The position numbers and the translations under genes are program-made. A stretch of 63,372 bases of DNA, the filler included, from an uncultured bacterium (GTDB taxonomy: Bacteria; CAYUVA01): the NCBI GenBank assembly GCA_964448115.1. It is 3 parts of 3 records of this genome, joined end to end, with 100 filler letters (N's around TTAATTAATTAA, not from the genome) between each part and the next. Parts side by side here need not be neighbours in the genome. Positions count along the whole stretch, not along the records: positions 1 to 27,663 come from CAYUVA010000051.1; 2 more parts are not named here. One strand, written 5' to 3'. A model generated the notes under the pieces. That model was not told the origin of the DNA. It worked only from the letters and a program-made list of their open reading frames with translations, and searched no databases. The stretch's first letter is position 1; each line of letters begins with the position of its first letter. This document shows positions 922 to 63,372 of this stretch, piece after piece.

Positions 922-3900
922 ATGAGGTTGTATATAAATAAAAGCCTTGATACAAAGGCGTTTTTCCTGGTGGGTTGTCTTGTTTGCTTGTGCTTATCTG
1001 CCAATATAAGCCTGGCTGCAAAGAGCGATCAAGCAGCGCCTTTAGCTACCCCGACACCACCAGCAGAGAACCAGGTTATCATCTCGCCGACGCCGACACA
1101 TGTCTCCGGCTCAATCGATACAGACACCTACTGGTCTGCGATGACCAGCCCGGTCTATATCGACGGCGATACCTTCCTGGAGAACGGGGTTACGCTGACC
1201 ATCTTCGGCGGGGCAGAGATCCGCTTCACCGGCAACTATCGGCTTGAGATCCACGGCAAGCTGGTCGCCAGGGGATCTTATGGTGCTTACATCACCTTCA
1301 CCTCGAATTGCCCCTCCCCGCAGCCTGGGGACTGGAAGTTCATCCGCTTTGCCAACGACTCCATGCCAGCAAGCTACGATGAGTCTGGGGAATACCAAGA
1401 TGGCTGTATAATCGAGAACGCCATAATCGAGTATGCACGCCAGGGTGTGGTCTGCGATGGGGCTATGCCTTACATCCACCTCAATACCTTCAGGCACTGC
1501 GGTACTGAAATGGACAAGGGAGCTGGGATCGGATGCTATTACGATGCAGCTCCAAGGATAGAAGGGAACATCTTCAGGGATCTGTTCGCCATCGAGGGTG
1601 CGGGGATCTTCGCCAATGACTCGCACCCGCAGATCATCGACAATATATTCATAAGAAACGAGGCGGATCAGGGAGCGGCGATATTCCTCAATCTCGATTG
1701 TAATCCGCTGATATCGGGCAATACACTGGCTAATAATACAGCCAGCGGCTACAAGGGGGACCAGGTGGCACTGTACAGCAGCTACAGCTCATCTCCGAGC
1801 GTAAGCGGGCTGGTGGCGGTGCACAACGATTGCGGGGGAGTTTATGTAGAGTCCGGCTCCATGATCCACTGCACAATTGTGAACAATCAAGGGGATGGCA
1901 TTATAGGCACCCCGCTGAACATAAATCGATGCAATATATACGCAAATGAGGGCTATCAACTGCGCCTGAATTACGATGAGGATGTCAATGCGACCTATAA
2001 CTACTGGGGCACAACTGACGGCGAAGAGATCAACGGCTACATTTTCGACCGCAACGATTCCGCCTCGGTGGGCAGGGCGCATTTCGTGCCATATTTATCC
2101 TCCTGTGCTTATGATGCACCGATCCCGCCACCGCTTGAATTGCAGATAACCGAGCTGCCCGACCAGTTCATCCTGCAATGGATACCGGTAAACCATGCCG
2201 GTCTTATGGGCTACCAGATATACTATGATACCGACGGCAGCGGAGAGCCTTATGACGGCAAGAACCTCGACCAGGGGGATTCGCCGATCGGACTGGTGCC
2301 GAGGGAGGATTACACGCTCACCGGCATCGATCCCTCCAAGCGTTACTGGATAGCGATGAAGGCGATAAAATCCGGGTTCAAGGCGAGTTATTACTCCAAC
2401 GAGGTGAGCGGCACGCTGAGCACACTGACACCAACCCCGACCAACACGCCGACCATAACCCAAACTCCCACAGTAACGCCGACCATGACCAACACTCCCT
2501 CGATAACCGCCTCGCCGACAGCCACGCCGACCGTAACCCCCACCGGCATGTCAACCTTCACACCATCAGCAACCGGCACCCCAACGGTAACCAACACTCA
2601 GACTCCGACCAGCACGTCAACCGGCACCCCGACCAGTACCAATACGCCGACCTGCACTCCCACCCATACGCCGGTGCCGGAGACCTGGATCGAGCACGAT
2701 ACCACCTGGCACCTGGAGGGAAGCCCCTATTATCTTTTAGGCAACCTTTATATCGGCAATGGAGCGACTTTAGTGATCGAAGCCGGCTGCGAGATATATT
2801 TCCTGGTTCCAGGGCGGATAAGCGTCGAGGAAGGGACGCTGGTAGCTCGCGGCTTTGAGGATCAGCGCATCCTGTTCACCGGCTATGGCTCCACCAATTG
2901 GCAAGGGATCGCCTTCAAGGACGATGCAGTGGATGCTCAATACGATCCCAGCGGTGGTTGGGTCAGCGGGTGTATCCTGCAGAACTGCGATATCTACAAG
3001 TCATCGCTGGCAATTTATATACAGAAATCCTCGCCGTTCATAGATAGCTGCAATATCCGATACAACATCGGCAGCGGCGCCTTGAGCGGCGCTATCCAGG
3101 TGGTCAACCAGGCATCTGCGCGCATCGAGGGTAATACGATAAGAAACAACGCCGGCGGGGTAGGGGGCTTGTTTATATATAATGCCTCGCCCCAGGTTCG
3201 GAATAACATAATCATCGACAACATAGCCGACGGCTCAGGGGGACAGGCTGCCGGCGGAGTGAGCGTCTTTTTCACAGACAGCGGTCCGGCTCCATTCATC
3301 GAGCATAATATAATAGCCAGGAACTGGAGCCAGGATGGCGCCGGGGGAATCTATGTCGATTACCGCTCCAATAACGCCGAGATCAATAACAACCTGATCT
3401 ATTACAACGATGGCGATGGGGTGTGGGCTGGAGGAGGTCAATATCACTATAACGCTATCGTACTGAACAATGGTATCGGCATTACTGGAACCACCGCAGG
3501 CTCACCTGATTATGTAACCTACAACGCCATCTATGGTAATGTCAGCTACCAGGCTGCGCTCGCTTGCGGAATCGGAGTCGATGGCACCTATACATACTGG
3601 GGAACGACCGATGATGAGCTAATAGCTGAGATGATCTATGATCAAAGCGATGATGCTTCCCTGGGTATATATTATTATGACCCGATCCTCGAAGAGATGC
3701 ACCAAGACAACATGATACCTCCTCCCATCGGCATCGAGCACACGCATAACGGCTTAGTGCTTTATCTCAGTTGGCTGCCGGTAAACCATCCCGATGTAGC
3801 CGGCTACAATATCCACTATGACTTCGATGAGCCGGGCTTTCCCTTCGAGGGGACTGGTGCGCCCCAGGGGGATTCCCCCATTACAGTAGGCGATGTTACC

Positions 3901-4554
3901 GAGTGCCAGGTAACCGGCTCCGAGGCAGGTCAGGTCATCTTCGCTGCAATAACCACGCTCACCTCCACTGGCGAGAGCTGGTATTCCAAGGATATCATCC
4001 ATCAGATCGGGATGGAGACCGCCACGCCAACAGCCACGCCGACCCACTCCGCAACCGCCCAGCCGACCAGGACGCCGACCGTAACCAACACGCCGAGTGT
4101 AACCCCCACTCAGACGCCGACGATCACATCAACGCCGACCGAGACGCCGACCATAACCAAGACGCCTACTAGTACGCCCACTTTCACCAATACGCCGACC
4201 AAGACGCCGTTTTTCACCGTCTCGCCGACTGGTGGAGCATACAATCCTCCCAAGATACTGCTCGGCGGATACATGGCTGCCAACATCACGAAGGAGCTAG
4301 GGGGCTTGTTCGAGATGCTCGCTATGGTCTCGGACCCTGATGGACACAAGATATTGAAGGTCGAGATCCACTACAACAACATGCCAACCGGCGTGCAGTT
4401 GCCAGCCTTCAACCTGGAGGACGGCGTTTACTGGATGACCGGACCTCGTATAGAACCGGGCATCGAGCCGGCTGAGTTACTGCTTCAACTGCGCGCCACT
4501 GATATCACTTTCTCGATGAGTTCATTCTGGCCTTACCTTTCGGTGGGAGGTTGA
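922..4554 (+). CDS. Large exported protein: 2x [right-handed beta-helix + FN3-like + Thr/Pro linker] + shared C-terminal WPxLxV domain
   Basis: Signal peptide; Asn-ladder repeats (I.GN.I..N.A..GAGI); FN3-like W...GY.I.YD segments; TPTxTPT linkers; internal duplication. Confidence 0.85.
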
Positions 4555-4665
4555 CATCATTTTAATGGGTGATTGGATTACATCTGAAACACGGCCGGAC
4601 GATTGTAATACCTGCCATACCGGGGTGACGGTGGATTGAACAACACTGAAAGGTGAATTGTTGCT

Positions 4666-5811
4666 ATGAGTAAACCAATTATTTTCTTTATATGTATAAT
4701 CCTCTCATTGCCAGCAACTTTAAAAGCTAGCAACTCCATCATTGATAACATCGATATTTCCGGCTACTTCCAGCTATGGTGCATACCCTATGAGGGTGCT
4801 GAGAACGGCTTGCAGCAGCCCTTTAGCGAACAGGAGGCTGCTCAATCAGCCGCCGGGTTTATCTTTCGCCGAGCCAGGCTGAAACTACACAGTCAGAGCG
4901 ATGATGCCTTCCTAAAGATCAATTTCCAGGCGAGACTGGAGGGAGGCTTCGAGCTATATGACTATTCTGCCACAATGAATTTCAGCCGGCACTTAAATTT
5001 ACTTGTCGGGCAGATGAAAATCCCCATTGAGTACGAGAGTCTTATATCAGCGCAAAATCTGGACTTCATCGTCCGCTCCCAGTTGGCTCGAAAGCTCCCA
5101 GATTACACTCTTTCACGGCATCCATTCAAGGTATCTCCATTTTATGGCAACAAACCAAGAAGGCGCGATCTTGGCATCGGCGCTAAGGGAACGATTCTGG
5201 GAAATCACCTCAAGTATTTCGTTATGCTAGGTAACGGTTTAGGTGCTAACCTATGGGTGGGATGTGATACTCAAAAAGGATTTATTACATCAAATGAACC
5301 TGGCGATCTTCTCTATAGCGGCAGGATCGAGCTTATTCCAATGAGCGGGATCTCAATAGGAGGTCATTATACATATAACTACCATGAGAATGTTATCTAC
5401 AACGAGGATAATGTACTCGATATAAAGAGAAAAAGCTGGTCAACCGACCTGCAATTAAAAACGCTGCAAAGGATTAAATGTGTCTTTATGTATGCAGGTG
5501 GATTGGTCGATGATGACATCGATTATAATGGCAAGACTGACTATGAATACTGGGGCTGGGAGGGAAGGCTAATCGCTGAGCTTATCAAGGATAAACTGGA
5601 GCTGGGGCTTAGATTTGATAGCTACAGTTATCGCAATAACAATTTAGCACCGACAGTTATTCAGGATATCTGGACTTATGGGATCAACTATTACCTTGAA
5701 CCTTGTGGCAAGCTACAACTTAATTACATGCACAAGGTAAAGGATAACAAGGTCGATGAGGATCTTGATGATGATATAATCTTCATCAATTTGCATCTAG
5801 GATTCCACTAA
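4666..5811 (+). CDS. Outer-membrane porin, OprO/OprP-like
   Basis: Signal peptide; FRRARL, GQMKIP..E.L.S...LDFI.RS and RDLGI motifs; amphipathic C-terminal strand ending LGFH. Confidence 0.75.
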   Translation: MSKPIIFFICIILSLPATLKASNSIIDNIDISGYFQLWCIPYEGAENGLQQPFSEQEAAQSAAGFIFRRARLKLHSQSDDAFLKINFQARLEGGFELYDYSATMNFSRHLNLLVGQMKIPIEYESLISAQNLDFIVRSQLARKLPDYTLSRHPFKVSPFYGNKPRRRDLGIGAKGTILGNHLKYFVMLGNGLGANLWVGCDTQKGFITSNEPGDLLYSGRIELIPMSGISIGGHYTYNYHENVIYNEDNVLDIKRKSWSTDLQLKTLQRIKCVFMYAGGLVDDDIDYNGKTDYEYWGWEGRLIAELIKDKLELGLRFDSYSYRNNNLAPTVIQDIWTYGINYYLEPCGKLQLNYMHKVKDNKVDEDLDDDIIFINLHLGFH

Positions 5812-5838
5812 CGGTAAAGTATTCTTCGCCTGCCATAT

Positions 5839-7395
5839 TTGAATATCATTCCTATTTTGATTATAAAAGATTCTGTGTTCAGGAGAGATCGTATTTTATT
5901 TCTTTATGTATTAGGGGCTTTATTTTTAGGGGTTTACCTCTGTTTTGCTTTCCCTGGTTCTCCATGCTGGGAATCAGAGGACACCTGCGTGGGTCGCAAT
6001 CTCATTGTCGCCGATATGGATAAGAATGGCTTCAATGACCTTGTAGTGCTGGATGGCGGACTTCCTATCTTCCAGTCGGATCACCAGGTGATACGAATTT
6101 TTTATAATCAATATGGCACACTAAACAAGAATATTGGATATAGTTCAGCAGAGTATTCTTTTTATACAAGATATCTAAACACCATATCCCTCGGCCATCT
6201 GGATGATGATGGCTATTTGGACCTTGCGGTGGATCTCGGACAACGAGGGGTAATGATCTACTACAATAACCAGCAGGGAGCCTTCGAGGATGAGCCAATA
6301 GTGCTGGAATATACCGAGCAGGCAGATTATTATTATACCTTCGGCGCTGACTTTGCACAGATCGAGGATCTTACTGGCGATGGATATGGTGAGGTGATAG
6401 CACTGTGGTTCCATAGCCTGCGTATTTATCCTAATATTCAGGGAGTTGTTAGCTCTGATCCACAAGTAATAACCTGGTCGCCACCACCGACCAACCAAAA
6501 TACCCATTTCAAGAGCCTGGCTATCGGCGATGTCAACAATGATAACTTCAAGGATATCGTGGTTAGCTACCAGCCTACCATGCTAGGTGGCAGGGAAGGG
6601 GTGGCTCTTTTCATAAATAACATTGGCAAATTTAGCAATACACCCGATTGGTGGTGCAAGCAGACCGGAAGAGCGAACCTCGTTGATGTAAATCAGGATG
6701 GATATTTAGACCTGGTTCTTAACTCCCGGATCTTTCTAAATGATCATGGAACATTTAATCAAGAGCCTGATATAACCAATCAATTATACGCTGGAATATG
6801 GAGGGACCTGGATAACGATAGCTATCCTGATCTCGCCCTGGAGTACATGGACAAGAACCTATGGCTTGTGTTGAACAAACAAGGCTCGATAGCCCCCTCT
6901 CCTGCATGGAGATATATTTCCGAGCATCGCTTCGGAGACCATGCGATCGGCGATCTGAACAATGATGGCATAAATGACCTTATTATCTCTCTAATGGAAG
7001 GACACATAGTTTACCAACCCCAAGAAATAGTCGTTTTTTATAATGATGGCGTATTCCCAGAGCCTGGGGCACCTAGATGTTATTTCGCTGGTTACCTGAA
7101 CTCTGCCCTGAGCAGTAGCGGCGGTGGATTGATATGGATGCTCGCTTATATCCAGGATCCAGTGAGTGCCTATGATATCAAGGCTGTGGAGCTATATTAT
7201 GGCACCATGTCAACCGGCATTTATCTTACCGATGAGGGGGATTGGTGGGACCTGGAGAGGATGGATGGTTGGTATGGGCTTTATATGCAAGTGTCGCCCG
7301 GGATGCCAACAGGAGCATATCTAATGACCATTTATTTGAGCGACTATGATGGTTTTAGCAACCTTAGCTGGCCTTATCTAAATGTTGACTATTGA
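5839..7395 (+). CDS. FG-GAP/VCBS-repeat exported protein with shared C-terminal WPxLxV domain (start codon uncertain)
   Basis: About 7 DxNxDGxxDL-type repeats (DMDKNGFNDL, LDDDGYLDL, DVNNDNFKDI, DVNQDGYLDL, DLNNDGINDL); hydrophobic N-terminal segment. Confidence 0.85.
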   Translation: MNIIPILIIKDSVFRRDRILFLYVLGALFLGVYLCFAFPGSPCWESEDTCVGRNLIVADMDKNGFNDLVVLDGGLPIFQSDHQVIRIFYNQYGTLNKNIGYSSAEYSFYTRYLNTISLGHLDDDGYLDLAVDLGQRGVMIYYNNQQGAFEDEPIVLEYTEQADYYYTFGADFAQIEDLTGDGYGEVIALWFHSLRIYPNIQGVVSSDPQVITWSPPPTNQNTHFKSLAIGDVNNDNFKDIVVSYQPTMLGGREGVALFINNIGKFSNTPDWWCKQTGRANLVDVNQDGYLDLVLNSRIFLNDHGTFNQEPDITNQLYAGIWRDLDNDSYPDLALEYMDKNLWLVLNKQGSIAPSPAWRYISEHRFGDHAIGDLNNDGINDLIISLMEGHIVYQPQEIVVFYNDGVFPEPGAPRCYFAGYLNSALSSSGGGLIWMLAYIQDPVSAYDIKAVELYYGTMSTGIYLTDEGDWWDLERMDGWYGLYMQVSPGMPTGAYLMTIYLSDYDGFSNLSWPYLNVDY

Positions 7396-7396
7396 G

Positions 7397-7885
7397 CTAT
7401 TGGGTGGTTCTGGTCAACGGATAATTGGGTAGCAACCGGTTCCAGGTTTTTACATTAAGCACATTACAGCCGTTGAAGATGGTATTTTTCCATTGGTCTG
7501 CAATCCCGAAAAGGGGGAGCTTTCTCCTGAGCATCTCTGATAAACCAAGCATAGCAGGCTCGGAGAGATTATCGATATCTATCAGGACTATACAAACAAT
7601 CGGTTTATTAGTGCGACCAGATGCCCATTCATACAGAAAACTATCCCTGAAGGTATAGGTCAGGTCGGTGATGAAATCATAAGCTCCTAGTTCCTGCTTC
7701 CTATATGCTTCCTTTATCTGCTGCGGATCCGCGACCAGGAGATACAGGATTTTATCCTGTAACTCGACAATAAAATCTACTGCCTTCATACAATGCAACA
7801 TTCCGTGTTCCTGACCGGCGAATCTCCTGGCTTCGATAGCCTCAGAGAAGTCGAATCTCAACCCGTTTATCCTGAATGCCTTCAT
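7397..7885 (-). CDS. Hypothetical protein, PD-(D/E)xK-like partner of the adjacent ATPase
   Basis: ATGA overlap with upstream ATPase; KAVDFIVE...LYLLVADP resembles a D...ExK nuclease core with E/K substituted. Confidence 0.6.
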   Translation of the reverse strand: MKAFRINGLRFDFSEAIEARRFAGQEHGMLHCMKAVDFIVELQDKILYLLVADPQQIKEAYRKQELGAYDFITDLTYTFRDSFLYEWASGRTNKPIVCIVLIDIDNLSEPAMLGLSEMLRRKLPLFGIADQWKNTIFNGCNVLNVKTWNRLLPNYPLTRTTQ

Positions 7886-8919
7886 TGGTTCGACTCCTTC
7901 TTCTCTTTATCCATTAGCAGTTTCTTGATCTCGCGGTCATAAACATCCATGTAGGCATCTGCGATCGGATTGATCGGTAATTGAAAACATGAGGGTGCGC
8001 TTCGCACCTTGATCTCATCCTCATAACGATAAAGAACATGATACATAAGGTCGTCTTCTTCCTCTCTTTGCAGCTCCAGCTCCTTGAGCAGCAAGTAGCT
8101 ATGGGTGGCCATAAATACCTGGACTCCCATCTGTTGTAAATGCAGCAATATCCTTGCCAGCAGTTTTATTGTTTTAGGGTTAAGATCCGCTTCAGGCACA
8201 TCCCAAAACAGGACTGAGCCATCGTGAAGGGTTCCATTGCGAATAAGATGCCCGAGCAGAGCCAGCTTGCGAAGCCCCTCGCCGAGAAGGCTGAATTCGA
8301 GGTTGCCATGGCTGGAGCGCAGGAAGAATTCCTCGTGTTTGGACATGACCTTACCCCCACTTAACTCCTCAATTATATCAATAGATTCCTTTTTTCTGTG
8401 TTCGGTTGGACCCCTCAGCGCGGGGATCAGTGCATAGCCGATTAAATCTACCTCTATCTCCTCGAAGCTCATATCGCTTGAATCGTACAAATCACGGTAA
8501 TTGGGAGCATTTATCAAAACCTCGCTGGATGGTATATAAGCGCAGGCTAGAATCTGCGCTTTCCAATCAGGAAGCCCGTGAATATTTATATCATTGGACT
8601 TAGAGTTATCGGTATGGCTGGTGAAGGATACATACAACCTGGTTTTATCGCTGAAGATCTCAATAACCGTGCTGGCTATCCCCCGTTGTCTTTGTACTAA
8701 CCGACCGACCTTTTTCCCGGTGGGCAGAAAGTCTCTTATTAGCTTATCGATAAAATTATCCTCTGATATGGTGATATCGCAGCCAGCATAAAGCACCTTC
8801 AGTAAGTGAGTTTTGCCAATTCCATTTTCTCCAATAAGTATGTTAATACCCGGAGAAAAGAAAAGATCCAGATTTTTGAAGGCTGTAAACTGTTCGATTC
8901 GAAGCCGTTTTATTCCCAT
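7882..8919 (-). CDS. ABC-type ATPase (AAA_15/AAA_21-like)
   Basis: Walker A GENGIGKT, signature-like LGEGLRKL, Walker B VLFWDVPE, H-loop ATHS; AAGGAG RBS upstream. Confidence 0.85.
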   Translation of the reverse strand: MGIKRLRIEQFTAFKNLDLFFSPGINILIGENGIGKTHLLKVLYAGCDITISEDNFIDKLIRDFLPTGKKVGRLVQRQRGIASTVIEIFSDKTRLYVSFTSHTDNSKSNDINIHGLPDWKAQILACAYIPSSEVLINAPNYRDLYDSSDMSFEEIEVDLIGYALIPALRGPTEHRKKESIDIIEELSGGKVMSKHEEFFLRSSHGNLEFSLLGEGLRKLALLGHLIRNGTLHDGSVLFWDVPEADLNPKTIKLLARILLHLQQMGVQVFMATHSYLLLKELELQREEEDDLMYHVLYRYEDEIKVRSAPSCFQLPINPIADAYMDVYDREIKKLLMDKEKKESNQ

Positions 8920-9193
8920 TAATGAAACTCCTTTTTATGATTCGTCAAGTTCACGCTAAAACATAGCATACTTTTTAACTCTGTGAAAGAGCTTTTTAAC
9001 GAAACGCATACTTGAAATTTATAACAAGATCACCTTCAGGTTTGTTCCATTTATTTTCAATAGTAAAGACTTAAGGCTTGAAAGTTTTTCATTTTGTCAA
9101 GGGTTTTGAGACAGAATCTTCGGGATAGGACAAAATTATTGTCTGCATATAAGCAGTGCGAAAGTTAGTGAAAATCTCGGAATAAATAGGTTC

Positions 9194-9685
9194 CTAATCC
9201 TCTGAGATACTAATAATACGGTAGTTTTCACCTCGCGGGGGGTATTTGGTTATATGTATGGTTCCCCGGTTATCTTGCCAGATATAGGTTTTCTTGGAAG
9301 CTTGTACTGCCTCTTTAGCCTCCAGTTTCGACTCAGCCACCTTTTGGAGCTGCTGCAAAGATTTTTTGAGGCTCTGATTTTTCTGTTCTAGGTCGGCAAT
9401 CAGCTTCTCATTTATCGCATTTTGTTGCTTCAGATCGTTCAACTGCTTGTTGTACTGGCTCGTCTTATCGGTCATCTCCCTTTCCATCCCCCCGATAATA
9501 GGCTCGTAGCGGCTGCGGGAAAACTTGTTCTCCAGGAGCATGCCGATAAAAAGACCGATGATAAGAGAATTTATGATGGAGAAGATGACTGACCGCAGCG
9601 GGAAGCTAATCGGCTTCTTCTCGTAGTCTCCCTGCTTTTGCATGGCAGCTTGTTCTTTCAGTATCCTGTCGGTAAGCTCTCCCAT
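9194..9685 (-). CDS. Membrane-anchored coiled-coil protein with C-terminal DUF4124-like motif
   Basis: One TM helix, Q/K/E-rich coiled coil, TYIWQDNRGTIHITKYPP at the C-terminus. Confidence 0.6.
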   Translation of the reverse strand: MGELTDRILKEQAAMQKQGDYEKKPISFPLRSVIFSIINSLIIGLFIGMLLENKFSRSRYEPIIGGMEREMTDKTSQYNKQLNDLKQQNAINEKLIADLEQKNQSLKKSLQQLQKVAESKLEAKEAVQASKKTYIWQDNRGTIHITKYPPRGENYRIISISED

Positions 9686-9874
9686 GGGAGCATAGTAAAA
9701 AAAAAAGTCGAACTAATAAGGGAACTATAGATACTTTACACCCAACCGTCAAGGTGTAAAAAAACAAAGGCAGGAAAATAATCGTTACTTCTCTCACATC
9801 GTATATTCCATCCTTTCATTTGTGCCTAAAATCTGCTACAAAGATAAGCGAGTTAACAGATAACAGGCAGGGCT

Positions 9875-11026
9875 ATGATGATCAAACAAGTTAACATACT
9901 CCCAGTACTGGCGATCATATTATTATTGATGCAAGGCAGTGATTCGTTTGGCTACCTGCAGGTGGGTGATACAGCCACCGATTTCATGCTCCAGGACAGC
10001 TATGGCAACTCGGTGAGCCTGTCCGATTTTTCTGGTGAGATCATCCTTCTAGCCTTCTGGCGCCGTGGCTGAAGTGCCTGTGCGCAGGAGGCTTCTGCGC
10101 TTGAAGGCAGCGTATGGCAGGTCTATGCCAACCAGGGCGTGCAGGTGCTTGCCATTGGCTGGAACGCATCCATAGAAGAGGCGGCTCAGTGGGTAAAGGA
10201 TCATGGGCTTTCCTATCCGGTACTCGCAGATCCAGATGGATCGGTAACTTTCCAATACACACCCCTTGCGGTACCATGGATCGTAATCATCGACCATTAC
10301 ATGGAGATTAGGCTCACCGATGCCGGGGCTGCTAAAAACAAGGATGTAAGCATGGCTGACATCATCAACATGATTGAAGAAATCCTCGATGAGCCACCAT
10401 TGGCACCCACCCTACAGGAGCCTATAATCGACGGGAGCGACCTGCTCCTCGCCTGGAGTCGAGGTATAGAGTCTGATCTGGCAGGATATACTGTACACTG
10501 GGGTGGTGAGTCAGGGAGCTATGTATCGTGTCTGGAGATAACCGATCCCAATGTTACCGATGCAAGATTGGAAGATTTAGATCCTGGATTATATTACCTT
10601 GCGGTTACCGCCTTCGATGGCAGAGACAACATCAGCGACTATTCCAACGAAAAAAGCGCCACTGTGCCGTCCCCGACACCGACTCCCACGCCGACGCAGG
10701 CTTATTCACCTCCCAGGATACATATCGGCGGATACTATGATACGCGACTTGTCGCCGGGCAAAGCGGGGATCTTTTTCTTTTTGCCAAGATAACCGATGA
10801 GGACAACGATATAGATAGTGTGGAGATCTATTTCCAGGAAGCGGCGACTGGAATTTACTTAAACGATAGCGGCGAAGATGGCGACTGGGCAGTGGAGGAT
10901 GACCTTTACTCCTGGAAGATAGAAGGAGTAACCATAGATTACCCATTGCAGGCGCTGCTGGAGATACGATGCAGCGATTGGCAGAGCCTTTGGGCTGATA
11001 GCTGGCCCTGGCTTACCGTGAAGTAG
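9875..11026 (+). CDS. Exported selenoprotein: redoxin (TlpA/AhpC-TSA-like, U-S-A-C) + FN3 + Thr/Pro linker + WPxLxV domain; UGA 10070-10072 read as Sec
   Basis: ORFs 9875..10072 and 10139..11026 are in the same frame with 22 sense codons between them. Joined sequence VGDTATDFMLQD...VSLSDFSGEIILLAFWRRG-U-SACAQEASAL...YPVLADPDG...AVPWIVIID forms a complete thioredoxin-fold redoxin; hairpin directly 3' of the UGA. Confidence 0.88.
10075..10109 (+). promoter_or_regulatory. Putative bacterial SECIS element
   Basis: Lower stem TGCCT(10075-79)/AGGCA(10105-09); upper stem GCGCAGGA(10082-89)/TTCTGCGC(10093-10100); G-containing apical loop ~17 nt after the UGA. Confidence 0.75.
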
Positions 11027-11041
11027 GAACGCAAAATCGAT

Positions 11042-11413
11042 ATGGGGACTGTAACCCTAGTAACTACAGGCTTATCGGTCATCTTATGGCTGGCAGCGGC
11101 ATTCTTTGCCGGCTATGAGATCAAGCTACACCTATCCAGGAAACAGGTCTATTCCACTAAGCGACTCCATCGACGACTACTCGGCTCAGCAATACTTTTC
11201 ATCATCGGAGCCATGATATTCCTGGGAGTAAATATCATAGATCTCACGGCCGATCCCTGGCTTTTTACCATCTACTGGAGTATCTGTCTCCTGCTGACGC
11301 TAAGCCTCGTGGTCATAGCCATCATCGATGTCCGCGATATCCTGCAAGGTTATGTTTACAGTCAAAAGTTACTCAACGATTACCTGCGACAGAAGGACGA
11401 CAAGCCAAGCTGA
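11042..11413 (+). CDS. Small membrane protein (3 TM)
   Basis: Three hydrophobic segments; starts 15 nt after the upstream stop. Confidence 0.7.
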   Translation: MGTVTLVTTGLSVILWLAAAFFAGYEIKLHLSRKQVYSTKRLHRRLLGSAILFIIGAMIFLGVNIIDLTADPWLFTIYWSICLLLTLSLVVIAIIDVRDILQGYVYSQKLLNDYLRQKDDKPS

Positions 11414-11436
11414 TAAAGTGCGAGAGAAAGCGCATC

Positions 11437-11504
11437 ACGCAAAGACGCAAAGACGCAAAGGGGAAGAAGGAAGAAAAAAGACACAAGGACATAAAGACGC
11501 AGAG
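11437..11504 (+). repeat. 8-nt periodic repeat (ACGCAAAG)n and variants
   Basis: ACGCAAAG x3 at 11437-11460; ACACAAGG ACATAAAG ACGCAGAG at 11481-11504. Confidence 0.8.
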
Positions 11505-11534
11505 AAGGAAGTGAGAGGTGAGAAATAGGAGAAA

Positions 11535-12455
11535 TTGGATTCTATGGACAAGGATGCTTTCAAGCCGACATATCTACAGATCGATGATGACGAATTCAGG
11601 GAACGGATAAAGACTGCCAACGACATCCTGGAGGACTGCGTGCTCTGTCCACGGCGGTGCAGGGTGAACCGCCTTGCTGGCGATCTGGGGGAATGCCAGG
11701 GGGGAGCTTTAGTAAAGATAGCTAGTGCCCATCCGCACTTCGGAGAGGAGCCGGTGCTAGTTGGACGATACGGCTCCGGCACCATATTTTTCTCCAACTG
11801 CAACCTAAGATGCATATTCTGCCAGAACTATGATATCAGCCATTATGGCAGCGGGGAGGAGATAAGCGCTCAGCAACTCGCCAATGTGATGCTCGCCTTA
11901 CAAGGACAGGGCTGCCATAACATAAATATCGTAACTCCCACCCATTATGCACCGCAGCTCATGGAGGCTATGCACATCGCATCCAAAAGCGGATTGCGCA
12001 TCCCCTTGGTTTATAATTGCGGCGGATACGAGTCGCTGCAAGTGCTGAAGCTGCTCGATGGCATTGTCGATATCTATATGCCTGATTTCAAGTTCGCTGA
12101 TAATGATGTCTCCAGGCGTTTCTGCGGGGTGGATGACTACTTCGAGGCGGCAAAGGCTGCCCTGGGCGAGATGCACAGACAAGTGGGGGATCTGAAGGTG
12201 AATACAAGCGGCATCGCTGAGCGGGGGCTGTTGATCCGACACCTGGTCATGCCTGATGATCTGGCAGGAAGCGAAAAGGTGCTCGCTTTCATCGCTGAAG
12301 AGATCTCCAAGGACTCTTATGTGAACATAATGGCACAATATCGTCCCTGCTACAAAGCTTATGATGATCCAGGCATCAATCGGCATCTCGCCTGGCACGA
12401 ACATGAAAAGGCAATGGAGATTGCTAGAAAACTGGGACTACATAGGGGATTTTAG
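11535..12455 (+). CDS. Radical SAM protein, PflX-like
   Basis: CVLCPRRC, HFGEEP, GSGTIFF, CNLRCIFCQN, DIYMPDFK, GLLIRHLVMP, MAQYRP. Confidence 0.9.
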   Translation: MDSMDKDAFKPTYLQIDDDEFRERIKTANDILEDCVLCPRRCRVNRLAGDLGECQGGALVKIASAHPHFGEEPVLVGRYGSGTIFFSNCNLRCIFCQNYDISHYGSGEEISAQQLANVMLALQGQGCHNINIVTPTHYAPQLMEAMHIASKSGLRIPLVYNCGGYESLQVLKLLDGIVDIYMPDFKFADNDVSRRFCGVDDYFEAAKAALGEMHRQVGDLKVNTSGIAERGLLIRHLVMPDDLAGSEKVLAFIAEEISKDSYVNIMAQYRPCYKAYDDPGINRHLAWHEHEKAMEIARKLGLHRGF

Positions 12456-12522
12456 GTAATAATTGAGGACAAACCTGAAGAATTGATTTTCATTACAAGG
12501 TCAGTGTCCGATCTTGTAAAAA

Positions 12523-12583
12523 CCGAGCCGTGAGCCTTAGCGAGCAGTCAGCGCTTGACCGCTCCCTAACGGTCGTGGCTTGG
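12523..12583. repeat. REP-like imperfect inverted repeat
   Basis: CCGAGCCGTGAGCCTTAGCGAGCAGTCA-gcgct-TGACCGCTCCCTAACGGTCGTGGCTTGG. Confidence 0.6.
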
Positions 12584-12854
12584 ATATTATATCGCCGAAC
12601 CTAGTTGAGCTTCTTAAAAGATACCAGGTGGATACGGTGGTTTACCTTGCATCGGTAGTTACGCCTCCAAAGGGTGCGACAAGAAAGTTTCTTCATTCTT
12701 TCAATCATAGCCACCAGGTTGAAAAACAAGGTTTTATATGAACAACTGGATCACCGGTGATCTAGTTACCAATCCCGATAAGGATTAACACGCTCGGTTA
12801 ATAATTGCCTTAGCCTTGGATTTCGACCCGAAATTATGGTCTATTTCCTAAAAA

Positions 12855-12884
12855 TTGACAAAGAGGGGTAAAAAACCTTATTAT
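12855..12884 (+). promoter_or_regulatory. Sigma70-type promoter for 12984 gene
   Basis: TTGACA-18nt-TATTAT. Confidence 0.55.
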
Positions 12885-12983
12885 AGATTTAGGAAGCAAA
12901 TAGTGTGCTCTTGGGGATGCAAGAGTTGATCTGAAGAGTGGAGAATCCAAGGGCGTTTTTGATTTAGTGGAAAAGGTCATCTG

Positions 12984-15548
12984 ATGAGAAACCTATCGTT
13001 GCTTTTACCATTGGTGGCTGTCTTTATTTATCATGCAGCCACAGTGCCCTTTAGCGATAACTATCCGCCATATACGCTGGAGCATACGCCAGCCAAGTGG
13101 TCGAGCAATGTCTCTCGCAGCACTAATATTCAGGTCAGGATCGAAGATACCAGCTCCGCGATAGATGTTGATAGCATTGAGCTTTTCATCCGCGGTGTCC
13201 AGGTAACCCCTACTGCCACGCATCCTTTCCCTGGCAACTACAAGATCGCGCTCGTATTTTATGATCCTCCCACTGATTTCGATTATGGCGAGCGGGTGCA
13301 TGTGGAGCTGAATGCCTGCGATATAGTGCCTAACTGCATGAACGAGGCGTACTACTTCACCATAGAAGAGGCACCCTGGACGGCTACGCCGACCATCTCT
13401 CCGACCCCGACCGATACCGGCGCACCGACCTGGACGCCGAGCTATACTCCGACCATGACTGCCACCCCGACCAAGACTCCAACCTTTGGTCCCTCACCCA
13501 CGCCGACTAATACAGGCACCTATACCTGGACACCGTCTGTAACCCCGACCGCATCCCCCTTTTTCGATAACACGGCTCCGCGCACCTTCAATCACACACC
13601 GGCGCGGTTCTCCAGTCATAATGACAACTACACCCAGGTATCCTTTGACATTACCGATGATGGCATAGGATTGAATCCTACGACGGTCAGGCTTCTGGTC
13701 AATTTTAATGCGGTGGATCTGAACATGAACGAGACCGAGCCGGGAGTATATCATTGCAGGTATCAGACCACGGAGCCGTATCCCTATTCCAGTCGGGTCG
13801 ATATAAAAATAGAGGGCTGCGACCTACAGACGACTCCAGAGCCGAATTGCATGTTGGATAATACCTATTTTTTCTACATCGAGGATGCTCCCACGCCAAC
13901 AGCTACCCCGACCCCCTTCTTGTCTGCCACACCTACCTGCACTCCTACTGGTACGCCGACTTCAACCCCACTAGGAGGTGTTATATACCAGGATACGACC
14001 TGGTATGCTCACGATAGTCCCTTCTTTATAATAAACGACCTCACCGTTGCACCTAATGCGACTCTGACCATAGAGCCGGGTTGCGAGATCAGGTTTAAGG
14101 GGATGTACACGCTAAAAATAGACGGCACTCTGATCGCCAGGGGAGAGAGGGCAGCCCCGATAATCTTCACCTTCGATAGTCCATATCCATCGCCTGGCTC
14201 CTGGGAGTGCATCAAGTTTACCAACCAGTCGCTCTGGGCGGTGTTGGATGAGGAATATAACTGGCTTGCCGGATGCGTAATGGAGTGGTGCCATGTTTTC
14301 TATAGCAAGGAGGGGATCTCCATCCAGGGGGCATCCCCGCTGATCAAGAAATGCAAGGTTATGTACACTAATAACCGTCTCGATCTCGGCGGTGCGATCA
14401 ACATCATCGACGGCGCATCTCCTTATATCATAAACACCCAGGTATCCTTGACCCTGGCTAGAAGCGGCGGTGGAATTTACATAAATAACTCTACGCCTTT
14501 GCTCATGGGATGCCAGGTGGTGGGAAATGTGGCTCAGACCGAGGGTGGGGGAATATATGCCACCTACCTTGCCTATCCCAAGATCCATGATTGCAGCATC
14601 ATCGGCAACGACCAGGATGGCATATTCCTGGGAGACGGCGTGGATGCGGAGATATTACGATGCAATATAACCCGAAACAGCGATTGCGGGATAAGAGGCA
14701 ACTCTACCGCATTTCATGACAGCAATATCATGAACAATGGCGAATACGATGTACGAAATACATCTGAGCAGACCTTCGAGGCGCAGGAAAACTACTGGGG
14801 CACCACCGATGAGGGGCAGATCGAGGAGAATATCTACGATGACGATGATGATCAGTTCGTCGGTGCGATCAATTTCCAGCCGTTTTTAGAGGAATTTTCA
14901 CTGCAACCCCCGCCCTTGCCCCCGCAGAATGTAAACATCGTAGCCGGCGATGGCAAGGTTACTCTATCTTGGGACGAGGGGGATCTGGAGAGGATCGAGC
15001 ATTATCGGGTTTACTACGACACCGACTCCGGGGTTCCCTACAACGGCACCGGCTCCGCGCAAGGCTCCTCGCCGATAGATATAGGCGGTTTCCCCGAATT
15101 CACGGTCAGCGGCCTGACCAATGGTGTAAAATACTACTTTGCGGTAACCGCGCTGCTCAAGGACGGCACAGAGACCTGGTATTCCGAGGAGGTGAGTCGC
15201 ATCCCCTTCAAGGACATATACAAGGATGCACCGGTGGTGCTTGCTGCCGGCTATTGGGATACCTACCTGGATTACAACTCGACCCATCTATCAATGATTG
15301 CACTGCTGACCGAACCACAAGGCTTGGATAATATTGCCTCGGTTGCCATTTTTTATCAGGGCGCGCCCAGCGGCATCCTCTTGTTCGATGATGGCGCATC
15401 CGGCGACTTCGGCGCTGGAGATGGAGTATTCGGTTTTAGCACCGACCTTCCCGTTGGATTAGATCCCTTGTGGCTGCTTCTCGAACTGAATAGCGTTGAC
15501 AAGACTGGCAATAAAGGGCGGCGCTGGCCGTTCCTGGTCGTGCAATAA
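12984..15548 (+). CDS. Exported protein: 2x Ig-like repeat + Thr/Pro linkers + beta-helix + FN3 + shared C-terminal WPxLxV domain
   Basis: Signal peptide; duplicated HTPA..SS...T...I.D....ID..S...ACD...NCM...YYF.IE module; beta-helix/FN3 similar to the 922..4554 modules. Confidence 0.85.
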   Translation: MRNLSLLLPLVAVFIYHAATVPFSDNYPPYTLEHTPAKWSSNVSRSTNIQVRIEDTSSAIDVDSIELFIRGVQVTPTATHPFPGNYKIALVFYDPPTDFDYGERVHVELNACDIVPNCMNEAYYFTIEEAPWTATPTISPTPTDTGAPTWTPSYTPTMTATPTKTPTFGPSPTPTNTGTYTWTPSVTPTASPFFDNTAPRTFNHTPARFSSHNDNYTQVSFDITDDGIGLNPTTVRLLVNFNAVDLNMNETEPGVYHCRYQTTEPYPYSSRVDIKIEGCDLQTTPEPNCMLDNTYFFYIEDAPTPTATPTPFLSATPTCTPTGTPTSTPLGGVIYQDTTWYAHDSPFFIINDLTVAPNATLTIEPGCEIRFKGMYTLKIDGTLIARGERAAPIIFTFDSPYPSPGSWECIKFTNQSLWAVLDEEYNWLAGCVMEWCHVFYSKEGISIQGASPLIKKCKVMYTNNRLDLGGAINIIDGASPYIINTQVSLTLARSGGGIYINNSTPLLMGCQVVGNVAQTEGGGIYATYLAYPKIHDCSIIGNDQDGIFLGDGVDAEILRCNITRNSDCGIRGNSTAFHDSNIMNNGEYDVRNTSEQTFEAQENYWGTTDEGQIEENIYDDDDDQFVGAINFQPFLEEFSLQPPPLPPQNVNIVAGDGKVTLSWDEGDLERIEHYRVYYDTDSGVPYNGTGSAQGSSPIDIGGFPEFTVSGLTNGVKYYFAVTALLKDGTETWYSEEVSRIPFKDIYKDAPVVLAAGYWDTYLDYNSTHLSMIALLTEPQGLDNIASVAIFYQGAPSGILLFDDGASGDFGAGDGVFGFSTDLPVGLDPLWLLLELNSVDKTGNKGRRWPFLVVQ

Positions 15549-27663: not shown

Positions 27664-27763
27664 NNNNNNNNNNNNNNNNNNNNNNNNNNNNNNNNNNNNN
27701 NNNNNNNTTAATTAATTAANNNNNNNNNNNNNNNNNNNNNNNNNNNNNNNNNNNNNNNNNNNN
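27664..27763. other. Artificial contig-joining linker
   Basis: N run flanking TTAATTAATTAA (stops in all six frames). Confidence 0.98.
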
Positions 27764-27886: not shown

Positions 27887-29344
27887 ATGAGCATTGAAAA
27901 GCTGCCATCTATCATACTATGCCTTGTCGTAGCCCTTGCAGGCGCAGCTTATGGCGCTACTTATGACCACACATTCTTCGCCCTGAGCAGCGGATATACC
28001 TCGGAGGATAACTTTACACTGGAGTATGATCTATATACCGGCCAACCGAGAGCCGGAGGCATCATGGATGATATCAACGGCTGGTACTTTGTCTATCATG
28101 GATATTATTACTTTGACATCGGTTCTCTTCCCACCGATGCTAATGTCCAGACCGCTATATTGACCCTGCGCACTTTTTTCGTGCCCGATCATGGCGCATG
28201 GAATGAGAGGATGCTCGACTTCAGGGACTTGATCCTGGCTGATATCCCGGAGAATGAAACTCCTTATGCAGTGTTCACTCGCGCTTCATCGGGACAGTAT
28301 TACGGAGAGCATTATCTAGTCTCATCGGATGCACAGATACTAAATATCAACATGAGCTCAACCTGCCTTGACCATATTGAGCAAAGACATAATACGCAAG
28401 GCTACGATTGGTTTGGGGTCAGCTTCAGGGTACTGCCTCCCTTTGAGCTTGGCTATCCGTACTCCAGCTTCAATGCCTTTAATGACCCAACATTGGGATA
28501 CCGTGGAACGCTGCGTTTAGTCTTTGACAGCGAGACGCCCTTCCCGACTGCCACTAATACGCCCACAGCAACAGGTGCAGCCGAAGCCACCCCCACGGCA
28601 ACTCCCTCAATGACGCCAACATCTACGCCAAGCTCCACACCGTCAAGTACACCAAGTGCTACTTTTACCCAAACACCAACCGCGACTGCAACCGATACGC
28701 CTACAAGTACGCCGAGTCCGACTCCCACCAGCACTCCAACCCAGACGGCAACCATGACTCCAAGCGCAACCTTCACCCAACTTCCGACCTCAACGCCGAC
28801 CAGCACTCCTGATGCTCAATATTGGTGCGTCAAGCCGATAGTCCCAGATGTTCCGATTACATTCTGCGACCCTACAGCCGAGCACAAGGTGGTGATAACC
28901 TTCCGCAATGTCATTGGCTCAGGTAACGCCCTGGTGATCATTAAAGATTATGCTCCACCTGATTTGGCTTCCAGTGATGTGCTTCGACTGCAATTCGAGA
29001 TCATAGTCGATGAAACGGTAACCTTTTATATCGCTGATGCAGTGTTCTATTATACTGAGGCAGATCTCCCCAGCGGCATGAGCGAGGGGCAGATAACAGG
29101 TATGGCAAAGTATAATAGTTATTTGCAGAAGTGGGATTACATCGGAGGTACGATAGATATCACCTCAAATAGCGTATCTGTAGAAAACATAAACCAATTC
29201 TCATTATGGACTATTGGAGCACAGGATGCTTATATCCTACAGGTTCCAAGTTTGAATTTTGTCAACCTGATAGCATTAGTTGTTTTATTGTCCACTGCTA
29301 TAGTCGCTTTGAGTAGAAGATCCTTTGAGCCAAGGCTTAGATAA
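27887..29344 (+). CDS. Surface protein: DNRLRE-like N-domain, Thr/Pro/Ser linker, beta domain, IPTL-CTERM-like anchor
   Basis: Signal peptide; [20 protein letters not shown]; long TPT linker; ends [16 protein letters not shown]...RR. Confidence 0.75.
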
Positions 29345-54848: not shown

Positions 54849-54948
54849 NNNNNNNNNNNNNNNNNNNNNNNNNNNNNNNNNNNNNNNNNNNNTTAATTAA
54901 TTAANNNNNNNNNNNNNNNNNNNNNNNNNNNNNNNNNNNNNNNNNNNN
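54849..54948. other. Artificial contig-joining linker
   Basis: N run flanking TTAATTAATTAA. Confidence 0.98.
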
Positions 54949-55407: not shown

Positions 55408-57861
55408 GTGGAAGCGATGATAAACTGGGGCAAATTTACCGACAAAGCAAAAGAAGCGGTTGCACTAGGGCAACAATACGCATCCAGGATGGGGCAACAC
55501 CATCTCAATACAGACCATATCCTTCTTGGAATGGTCGATCAAGATAATAGCATCGTACTCAAACTCTTCGAAGAGATGGGATTCGATCCCCAAAAAGCAA
55601 AGGATGTTATAAGGGACCGGGTCATCCGCTCTCAGGTGCTATCCTCGAGGGTGCCGCGCGGTTCGGAGCTGCAAATATACCTCACCGAGGAGACGGACAG
55701 GCTGCTCAATAACGCAATCGAGGAGTCTAATCGTCTCAACGACCAGTTTGCTGGCTGCGAGCATCTCTTCATCGCCATGGTCAAGGATAGTTCATCGACC
55801 GCTGGTGCCATTTTACAGAACCTCGATGTAAACCTTGAGAGGCTCTACCAATCATTGCAAAAGGTTCGTGGTTCCCAGAGGAGCATGGATGAGTCCGCTG
55901 AGGAGAAATACGATATGCTCAAGCGCTTCACCGTTGACCTGACCGACCTTGCTAGGCAAGGAAAGCTTGATCCGGTTATCGGGCGCGAAGACCTCATAAA
56001 AAGGGTTATCCAGATACTCTCGCGGCGAACCAAGAACAATCCGGTACTTATCGGCGATGCCGGAGTGGGAAAGACTGCAATAGTCGAGGGACTGGCTCAG
56101 AAAATAGTCAGCAACGAGATACCTGAGATGCTCAAGGATAAAAATGTGATATCGCTTGATTTATCGAGTGTCGTTGCTGGTTCAAAGTACCGCGGGGAGT
56201 TCGAGGAGAGACTCAAGACCATCATTGACCAGATAAAGGAAGCTTCTGGAAAGATTATCCTTTTCATAGACGAGCTGCATAATGTTGTCGGAGCCGGCGC
56301 TGCCGAGGGGAGCATCGATGCCTCGAATATGCTCAAGCCGGCGCTGGCACGCGGGGAGTTGCAATGCGTTGGTGCTACCACCATCGATGAATATCGCAAA
56401 CATATCGAAAAAGATGTTGCTCTGCAGCGCAGGTTTCAGCCAGTGTTGGTCGAAGAACCTTCCATCGAGGACACCATAAAAATCCTGCATGGATTGAAGG
56501 ATAAATATGAGAAGCACCATGATGTCTGCATCACTGAGGATGCTATCATAGCAGCCGCTAAGCTCTCTGCACGGTACATCAGCGATCGCTTCCTTCCGGA
56601 CAAGGCTATTGACCTCATTGATGAGGCTGCCTCAAAGGTGCACCTGGAGGCGACCTATATACCACCAGAGATAATCAGGCTGCAAAAGGAGCTTGAAGAG
56701 CTTAACCAAAAGGAGCAGGAGGCGGCATCAATAGGAGATTACGAGGAGGCAGCTAGAATAAAACAGCAGAAGATTAAACTCAACGAAGAGCTTGCTGAGC
56801 AGAAAGATAGGCATGAGAGAGAGCGTGTAACCTGTGATTTGACCGTGGATGCAGAACAGATAGCACAGGTTATCTCAAGATGGACAGGAATACCGGTAAG
56901 CAAGGTGATGGAGACCGAGAAGGACAAGCTGGTCAACATGGAGGATAACCTCCACAAACGAGTGATCGGGCAGGACGCAGCTATCAAGGCGATCTCTGAG
57001 GCAGTCAGGCGCTCTCGGGCAGGGCTGTCTGATCCCAACCGACCTATCGGCTCCTTCATCTTCCTTGGACCAACTGGAGTCGGAAAAACCGAGCTGGCAA
57101 AGGCGCTGGCTGAATTCCTCTTCGATGATGAGAGTGCACTGGTCCGCATCGATATGTCAGAATACATGGAGAAATTCTCCGTTTCACGCCTCATCGGCGC
57201 ACCACCAGGCTATGTCGGTTACGAGGAGGGAGGGCAACTCACCGAGGCAGTCAGGCGCAAGCCTTACTCTGTTGTGCTTTTCGATGAGATCGAAAAAGCA
57301 CACCCGGAGGTATTTCACCTCTTGCTGCAACTGATCGATGATGGAAGATTGACCGACTCAAAGGGCAAGGTAGTGGACTTCAGAAACACTATTGTAATAA
57401 TGACCTCCAACCTCGGCTCCAGGTATATACACTCCTTGACACCAGATCTCAGCCCAGAACAGCTTAAACAGGAGTTAGAGCGGATGCGTAAGGCGGTAAC
57501 CGAGCAGCTACATTCCTTCTTCAAGCCTGAATTTCTTAACCGCATTGATGATATAATCATCTTCGAGCCGCTCACCAGGGAGCAGGTGAAGCAGATAGTG
57601 CATCTACTGATCGAGCGTGTCCATAAGCGCCTGGCAGACAAAAACATCAGGCTCGAATTAACATCTCAGGTCTTTGATCATCTGTCTGAGATCGGCTTCG
57701 ATCCCAACTATGGCGCTCGTCCACTGAAGCGAGCTATCCAGCGTATGATAGAGAACAAGATCGCTTCGGAGATGATCAAGCAAGGCATATCCCAGGATGC
57801 AACCATTAAAGCCTATCTCAAGGACAGCCAAATTGCCATAGAGGTACAGAAGAGAGACTAA
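55408..57861 (+). CDS. clpC: Clp ATPase, ClpC-type
   Basis: Clp-N repeats; two AAA+ modules ([16 protein letters not shown]); short UVR-type middle domain (DYEEAARIK); start may be ATG 55417. Confidence 0.88.
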
Positions 57862-62840: not shown

Positions 62841-62958
62841 ACCCGGCAGCAACCTACTCTCCCACATCCTCTCGGATGCAGTACCATCGGCGATGGAGGG
62901 CTTAACTTCCGTATTCGGAATGGGAACGGGTGTTTCCCCTCCTCTATAGCCACCGGGC
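62841..62958 (-). rRNA. rrf: 5S ribosomal RNA
   Basis: Reverse complement contains CACCCGTTCCCATTCCGAATACGGAAGTTAAG and GATGGTACT...GGGAGAGTAGGT; ends approximate. Confidence 0.96.
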
Positions 62959-63055
62959 GATCTTGATTAAGATTTTATATAAAATTTCATCTGGCGACCG
63001 GAAGAATTCACGGTTCCTTTGTATGCGGAGAAAGCCTTTAAATTTCTCCATAATA

Positions 63056-63372
63056 AGGGATCAAGCCGAACGACCTATTAGTACCGGTCGGCTTTGACAT
63101 TACTGCCTTTACACCTCCGGCCTATCAACCTTGTGTTCTACAAGGGGTCTTGTTAGAGGCATTACCCTCTTGGGATATCTAATCTTGGGGTGTGCTTCAC
63201 GCTTAGATGCTTTCAGCGTTTATCACATCCGGACATAGCTACTCTGCAATGCTCCTGGCGGAACAACAGAAACACCAGAGGTCCGTCCACCCGGGTCCTC
63301 TCGTACTACGGGCAGCTCCCCTCAGATATCCTGCGCCCACAGCAGATAGGGACCGAACTGTCTCACGACGTT
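63056..63372 (-). rRNA. rrl: 23S ribosomal RNA, 3' end (partial)
   Basis: Sarcin-ricin loop AGTACGAGAGGAC, GATAAACGCTGAAAGCATCTAAG and AACGTCGTGAGACAGTTCGGTCCCTATC on the minus strand. Confidence 0.97.

Follow-up and report, generated by a model that had tools for sequence, protein, structure and literature searches.

The question raised by the locus described here is what a C-terminal domain shared by several exported proteins does for the proteins that carry it. The locus lies in a stretch of DNA of 63,372 nucleotides, filler included (the window, by which the whole stretch at its full length is meant), from an uncultured bacterium of the lineage CAYUVA01 (NCBI GenBank assembly GCA_964448115.1). 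An earlier reading made without database searches (the sequence-only reading) had proposed that four of its proteins, with unrelated cargo, end in a homologous domain of about 105 residues that belongs to an undescribed, lineage-specific sorting or anchoring system. In the analysis reported here the homology stands, the family proves to be partly described, as a short motif without a function, and the domain is tentatively read, with a probability of about 0.45, as an uncleaved module for surface retention or assembly. The four proteins and their copies of the domain are listed below in order of position; the outside hidden Markov models (HMMs) named in the list were built from proteins beyond the window.

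922..4554, plus strand: exported protein of 1210 residues by translation, with a signal peptide, proline- and threonine-rich (PT-rich) linkers and one C-terminal copy of the domain.
4243..4548, plus strand: domain copy 1, residues 1108-1209 of 922..4554, scored at 95.9 and 76.0 bits by the outside HMMs.
5839..7395, plus strand: FG-GAP repeat protein according to Pfam, with one C-terminal copy of the domain, in a reading of 518 residues.
7066..7389, plus strand: domain copy 2, residues 410-517 of the 518-residue reading (HMM envelope, outside HMMs).
9875..11026, plus strand: exported AhpC/TSA-type redoxin with an FN3-like module, a PT linker and one C-terminal copy of the domain.
10706..11023, plus strand: domain copy 3, at the C-terminal end of the redoxin (HMM envelope, outside HMMs).
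12984..15548, plus strand: exported protein of 854 residues with a signal peptide, Pfam matches to Beta_helix, NosD and fn3, and one C-terminal copy of the domain.
15225..15545, plus strand: domain copy 4, residues 748-854 of 12984..15548, with the DDGxxGDxxAGDG loop intact.

The last 105 residues or so of the four open reading frames (ORFs) align with 15 invariant columns and a mean column identity of 50%, and all six pairwise BLASTP comparisons of the copies are significant (expectation values, E, of 2e-14 to 4.9e-6; 28-34% identity over 106-111 columns). Two HMMs made from 51 outside proteins alone give the window copies scores of 76.0-107.4 bits. Across the window, 721 six-frame reading frames were scanned with a profile of the copies, and exactly these four matched (E 2.7e-40 to 1.2e-49). 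The scan is circular for the copies themselves and informative on further ones; no fifth copy was found among those frames, the next best standing at E 0.51. A word-index search with the domain of 12984..15548 (P0003) gave no match besides P0003. Given the alignment, the profile scan, the pairwise comparisons and the outside HMMs, the shared domain is therefore real and far beyond chance, as had been claimed. The alternative that the similarity arose from chance or composition, with no homology behind it, is refuted by the outside HMMs, by the pairwise BLASTP and by 443 outside proteins matched at E<=1e-10, and its probability is negligible.

Other details of the sequence-only reading fared unequally. 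The proteins do end in [23 protein letters not shown] and WPFLVVQ, the D-x8-W spacing does hold in all four copies, and the domain is indeed of immunoglobulin (Ig) size, free of a transmembrane helix and placed on varied exported cargo. The acidic loop, reported as present in three copies, turned out to be intact solely in 12984..15548; two further copies have a degenerate loop, and a 6-column gap shortens that of 922..4554.

That loop is where the domain meets a known family. The NCBIfam model NF041940, named "choice-of-anchor X" and 37 positions long, picks up the central DDGxxGDxxAGDG loop at E<=1e-3 in 49 of 67 relatives, which bears out the resemblance to this motif that had been noticed from the loop. 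It passes its cut-off in five of five related genomes, from which genome-level counts are drawn throughout, with 3-30 matches per genome lying inside the domain matches, and relatives such as P0007 (51.3 bits) and P0005 (47.2 bits) pass it individually. Within the window it matches P0003 alone (20.4 bits, residues 799-819), short of the 25 bits set as its curated cut-off, with no match at E<=0.1 in the remaining three proteins. Because NF041940 covers the core motif, the word "undescribed" cannot be kept. It is well supported that the domain is the full-length form, an Ig-like beta-sandwich of about 105 residues, around the acidic loop (DDGxxGDxxAGDGxY) of NF041940, in a family that has been described in part, as a short motif with no function attached. 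The comparison with Pfam and NCBIfam that had been suggested thus returned choice-of-anchor X, but no match to TIGR04183 and none to Pfam: no Pfam-A match extends over the domain in the four window proteins, none is found in the domain-only protein P0134, and none is common to more than 6 of the 67 full-length relatives at E<=1e-5.

Public resources add few names. Atlas look-ups return unnamed clusters (scores 0.92-0.94), a few members of which are labelled Bacteroidota, Ignavibacteriota or Fidelibacterota, and the relatives are publicly called "hypothetical protein" or named after their cargo. The phrase "choice-of-anchor X" was not found in a literature search, and the "choice-of-anchor" papers among the matches listed are, so far as their listed text goes, all on other subjects. 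According to the part of a preprint that was seen, the choice-of-anchor A domain is a mark of surface proteins whose anchoring depends on LPXTG, PEP-CTERM or the type IX secretion system (T9SS), and is itself no anchor (bioRxiv 10.1101/2023.03.06.531300). In the genome announcement for CSSED10-310 (PMC8248873), the envelope and secretion terms looked for do not occur.

In this analysis the family was met in diderm lineages without cultured members, namely a Coatesbacteria-like phylum, CSSED10-310 and other metagenome-assembled genomes (MAGs). Domain loci in species-representative genomes fall in candidate division CSSED10-310, Candidatus Coatesbacteria and other MAGs, and the ClpC-type AAA+ chaperone of the window (55408..57861, assigned by domain match) is 57-61% identical to its counterparts in the Coatesbacteria-like phylum against 47-50% in the other genomes tested. 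All seven genomes of this nearest phylum carry 29-41 domain matches each; five genomes of mixed origin carry 4, 11, 33, 5 and 51. The same phylum is diderm, with secretins in 7/7 genomes (2-4 each) and Omp85 in 6/7. A small protein of 183-222 residues with a single C-terminal copy of the domain, and with signal peptides in its aligned relatives, occurs at loci L001, L003, L006-L008, L010, L011 and L018, its match lying near 5700-6300 in most of them. It stands in a block ordered SelA, HD-GAF protein, ketoacyl synthase (FabF-like), unknown protein, KH protein, small protein and Mfd-like helicase; this CSSED10-310 block was considered as a secretion locus and rejected as housekeeping synteny.

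The family is large: when 1.84 billion representative proteins were searched with a profile, 826 representative clusters matched at E<=1e-3, of which 443 also reached E<=1e-10 and 116 reached E<=1e-30. The best 150 of these 826 matches, less four gene calls from the window, were used for layout counts (n=146). The usual layout is a signal peptide, a variable cargo and two tandem copies of the domain at the C-terminus, the window proteins having one copy each. Two copies in tandem are present in 136/146 proteins, one copy in seven, four in two and six in one. At most eight residues separate the last copy from the protein end in 118/146, and the remaining 28 run on for 34-501 residues, none with a transmembrane-like stretch. 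The expectation that the domain would be strictly C-terminal is accordingly borne out in those 118 but not in the 28, and internal copies exist. Its expected co-occurrence with signal peptides found support by a crude Kyte-Doolittle test, a hydrophobic N-terminus being present in 97 of 118 assessable proteins, two window-derived gene calls still counted. The extensions in four sampled proteins match PKD and choice-of-anchor D/Cep192_D4, and no recognised sorting domain was found in the nine extension-bearing proteins scanned. P0046 (4692 residues) has six contiguous copies and P0141 (2714 residues) four, each array being followed by about 500 more residues; P0030 (1869 residues) has a domain pair, further cargo and a second pair, as if two genes had fused or a stop codon had been missed.

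Such a layout can be taken in opposite ways. A true C-terminal secretion or sorting signal, read and perhaps cleaved by dedicated outer-membrane machinery as the C-terminal domain (CTD) is in the T9SS, would gain from the extreme C-terminal position in 118/146, from the 29-41 copies in each of seven genomes of one phylum, from the PT-rich linkers ahead of the domain (26 of 148 proteins scanned and two of the four in the window), and from the variety of the cargo. The latter comprises, in the relatives, S8, C25 and M14 peptidases, transglutaminase, BNR/PQQ/FG-GAP propellers, beta-helix and LTD (lamin-tail) proteins, all extracytoplasmic in type by their sequence families. The internal organisation of the proteins argues against a signal of this kind: the tandem pair is the norm (136/146), arrays of four to six copies occur, later domains follow in 28/146, and the consensus is identical in terminal (122) and non-terminal (163) copies, the final WPYLTI strand included. 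First and second copies are weakly distinct, their own HMMs assigning 30/52 first and 45/52 second copies correctly.

The search for machinery that might read such a signal was conducted on several fronts. Exosortase/archaeosortase (PF09721) and sortase (PF04203) were each found in 0/7 nearest-phylum genomes, with controls matched, and no transmembrane-like stretch follows the domain in the window proteins or in the extension-bearing relatives. With transpeptidase sorting systems not found in the seven genomes, the anchor slot is otherwise empty, and the cargo families have weak, sub-threshold matches to families that are T9SS- or myxosortase-dependent elsewhere, which suggests that the domain fills this slot; both points favour a sorting signal. 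On the other side, TIGR04183 has no match at E<=0.1 in the four window proteins and is absent among the 25 families commonest in the 67 relatives, a single match to T9SS type-A tails turned up across 13 related genomes, and SprA (TIGR04189) was found in 0/5 related genomes, a result that shows little because no control matched. The lone tail (G006:C226:3233-3472, 41.9 bits) may come from a contaminating contig or be an isolated relic. Nor was co-located candidate machinery found: across 14 domain-gene regions (13 of one genome plus the first 21 kb of the window; 184 ORFs, domain masked), no family other than the domain itself comes back at more than two. The sorting system that had been proposed consequently found no backing in neighbouring genes, in sortase-type enzymes or in type-A tails, and a true sorting signal is regarded as rather unlikely.

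One observation keeps a related proposal in view. Peptidase_C25, the gingipain/PorU family, has 6-16 matches per genome (G003 and G006-G011, genomes of 2.3-3.6 Mb), which counts in favour of a sorting signal, and several of these share their open frames with C-terminal domain-pair matches. The terminal domain, usually the pair, might accordingly be imagined as the address tag of an undescribed surface-sorting pathway in the Coatesbacteria-like phylum and CSSED10-310, in which Sec would export the protein, a distant outer-membrane component would recognise the free, WPYLTI-ended sandwich and a C25 peptidase would process or attach it. This is judged improbable; were it true, a functional counterpart of the T9SS would exist in lineages in which no T9SS was found.

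Structure prediction was likewise weighed. An AlphaFold2 model of copy 1 (4240-4551, from the four-copy alignment) is an all-beta sandwich (pLDDT 83.6, pTM 0.72), and the predicted fold is a generic Ig-like sandwich of the E-set type. Foldseek against the PDB gave nothing at E<=1e-3 for the single domain, the best match being the CelAly B1 domain at E 1.9e-3, and a sequence-profile search of the PDB gave 0 chains at E<=10. The VIA-align list, made up of Ig, FN3 and BIg domains, is flat (maximum Z 8.8; 31 chains at Z>=8), and in it 87-95 residues superpose on titin, twitchin, the CelAly B1 domain and a xanthanase domain; the T9SS-related entries stand within the crowd (PPAD 5ak7, Z 8.2; PorU 6za2, Z 7.9). 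The structural check that had been advised therefore yielded the predicted Ig sandwich, but no Foldseek match at E<=1e-3 for the single domain and no prominence of T9SS entries. The tandem pair, modelled from 20 sequences (pLDDT 86.1, pTM 0.82), has a disordered linker of 26 residues (residues 115-140), and from its pTM we read it as a predicted fixed two-domain unit. Its top Foldseek match is the calcium-binding adhesin SiiE (PDB 2yn5; E 2.5e-5, TM-score 0.23). NF033510, a Ca2+-stabilised adhesin repeat, gave weak matches of 16.6-24.5 bits, below its cut-off of 50 bits. Together with the acidic loop, this SiiE match and these sub-threshold matches suggest that the domain may bind calcium. A homodimer prediction with two copies of the window domain scored 0.01 against a mark of 0.42, which counts neither for nor against binding.

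So generic a fold invites the thought that the domain is a passive structural Ig module, a spacer, an aid to folding or solubility or a substrate-binding add-on, with no part in targeting or attachment, its C-terminal bias merely reflecting the site at which domains are added. The company of PKD, fn3 and Big domains, which are found alongside it, agrees with this, as do the weak Atlas leads to Big_13, Big_7 and DUF4625 (scores <=0.83) and the 24.6 bits, under the cut-off, of P0005 against DUF4625. A fixed number of two copies (136/146) and an end within 0-1 residue of the last copy (106/146) would be unusual for a spacer, and the W-P is invariant and the acidic residues of the surface loop are conserved across distant lineages, which also speaks against a passive role. 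This explanation is accordingly held to be doubtful.

The reading favoured here is that of an uncleaved module for surface retention or assembly. Sec would export the cargo, and the domain would persist as an uncleaved C-terminal module, probably stabilised by calcium, that would keep secreted enzymes and proteins resembling adhesins at the cell surface, in a matrix or on a partner. Its mode of action would be akin to that of dockerin, SLH, PPC/collagen-binding or BIg modules, with no dedicated translocon reading a targeting signal, and the outer membrane would be crossed by a general route, for example a secretin-based system. A reusable module of this sort is favoured by the tandem pair being the norm, by internal copies sharing the same consensus, by the arrays, by the later domains in a fifth of the proteins and by the lack of a co-located partner.

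Several considerations weigh against retention or assembly as the role of the domain. Calcium binding, surface retention, the binding partner and the outer-membrane export route are all elements that we infer. The C-terminal bias exceeds what would be expected of an ordinary binding module and fits a signal that needs a free C-terminus, 0 residues following the last envelope in 59 proteins and 1 in 47, together 106 of the 118 terminal cases. The ranking behind the best 150 matches favours two-copy proteins, and the list is enriched in them because scores add up. The fold matches are generic and uninformative on function. Lastly, because only one of the four window copies has an intact acidic loop, the loops of the others being degenerate or shortened, calcium binding is not essential in the window organism.

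The cargo of the window proteins can be described more closely. In 922..4554 there are two beta-helix plus FN3-like modules (Pfam Beta_helix, 2.8e-22), so that the protein is internally duplicated, with a long PT-rich linker after each; in 12984..15548 two Ig-like modules with PT linkers make up the N-terminal part, ahead of the beta-helix and fn3. Both modules of the former align with the single module of the latter by BLASTP, and the two proteins are paralogues beyond the shared domain (E 5e-53 with the domain removed). The four cargoes, which had been called unrelated, thus fall by their sequence assignments into three classes: beta-helix, FG-GAP and redoxin. The export signals claimed for all four proteins stand overall, but that of 5839..7395 depends on its start codon, which is uncertain between TTG 5839, GTG 5875 and GTG 5989. 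A start at GTG 5875 would give MFRRDR followed by some 20 hydrophobic residues as the signal peptide, whereas the public gene call (P0040) begins at 5989, without one. The porin-like gene 4666..5811 sits between the first two domain genes; when considered as a partner candidate, it had no homologue in seven related genomes with this query. Also between domain genes, on the minus strand at 7397-8919, are an AAA_21/AAA_15 ATPase (345 residues) and a small overlapping ORF of 162 residues, a pair that looks defence-type or toxin-antitoxin-type.

The redoxin carries a feature of its own, which the sequence-only reading had passed over in treating 9875..11026 as one ORF.

10070..10072, plus strand: in-frame TGA within FWRRG-U-SAC, at the first cysteine position of the redox motif; probable selenocysteine codon.

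The single frame exists only if this TGA is read through, and the public gene call splits the gene, P0048 beginning downstream of the codon. The Pfam AhpC-TSA match (1.8e-21) extends across the TGA, NCBIfam gives ResA-like matches, and the codon aligns exactly with the first cysteine of the CxxC motif in two related paralogues (FWATWCVPC and FWATWCYPC). SelA is present in 7/7 nearest-phylum genomes and in CSSED10-310 loci. A hairpin at 10075-10109, 5 nucleotides past the TGA, has a predicted energy of -20.8 kcal/mol and is no stabler than shuffled sequences (z -0.53), and the Rfam selenocysteine insertion sequence (SECIS) models gave no match. An exported UxxC selenoprotein appears the likeliest interpretation, ahead of a sequencing error or a pseudogene, either of which could still account for the codon. 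"1 TGA" flags in related genomes were set aside as ordinary stop codons. On G007:C53, from one related genome, a domain match is preceded on its own strand by a redoxin match, and both are reported within one open frame (925 residues).

Elsewhere in the window, the minus strand carries an N6_N4_Mtase DNA methylase fused to an Mrr-like restriction endonuclease domain (29337-30791) and, at the window end, a 5S rRNA gene with the 3' end of a 23S rRNA gene (62841-63372). Four runs of 44 N, 176 N in total, lie at 27664-27707, 27720-27763, 54849-54892 and 54905-54948, the first starting directly after base 27663; they may point to a scaffold or to masking.

What is at stake differs with the role of the domain. 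Some 15-20 proteins per genome in the candidate phylum bear the module, many of them peptidases and other enzymes that are likely to be secreted or at the surface, and a full-length model would allow annotators to mark out the surface proteins that these uncultured bacteria export. Should the domain prove to be a tag or an anchor, it would show how proteins are displayed in diderms for which the searches found no T9SS, sortase or exosortase; should it be a plain Ig module, the gain is an improvement in annotation only.

Among known systems, NF041940 stands closest in sequence. Its model spans about a third of the domain and assigns no function, and the window proteins fall under its cut-off, yet they are homologous, by way of the outside HMMs (76.0-107.4 bits), to relatives that pass it. 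By the convention taken from choice-of-anchor A, as far as the portion of its description that was seen goes, a domain so named precedes the anchor, whereas here nothing follows the domain in 118/146 proteins.

The T9SS type-A CTD resembles the domain in being an Ig sandwich of about 70-100 residues at the extreme C-terminus of unrelated, Sec-exported cargo in a diderm with many paralogues. It differs in that there is no sequence match and in that the domain of the window family is usually doubled, and also internal and arrayed; in place of one terminal copy there are two in 136/146 proteins, with continuation past the last copy in 28/146. The tripartite signals of sortase and exosortase (LPXTG, PEP-CTERM) are unlike it as well, with no transmembrane stretch after the domain and the enzymes found in 0/7 genomes.

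Modules that bind rather than direct come nearer to the reading favoured here. PPC and collagen-binding domains are C-terminal beta-sandwiches that secreted proteases often carry singly or as a pair, and some of them bind calcium; PF04151 was unmatched in all scans, and the cargo of the window family is far wider than peptidases. BIg adhesin repeats (SiiE, NF033510) share with the domain the top Foldseek match of the pair and the weak NF033510 matches, but the TM-score is 0.23, the NF033510 scores are below the cut-off, and long arrays are found there against a terminal pair in the domain family. Dockerins are helical, EF-hand-like domains, C-terminal on varied secreted enzymes and internally duplicated, with acidic loops. 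In fold they differ from the domain, and neither a Pfam dockerin match in the scans nor a cohesin-like partner was identified; they resemble it in the C-terminal position, the duplicated unit and the acidic loops, and both would serve assembly or retention rather than export.

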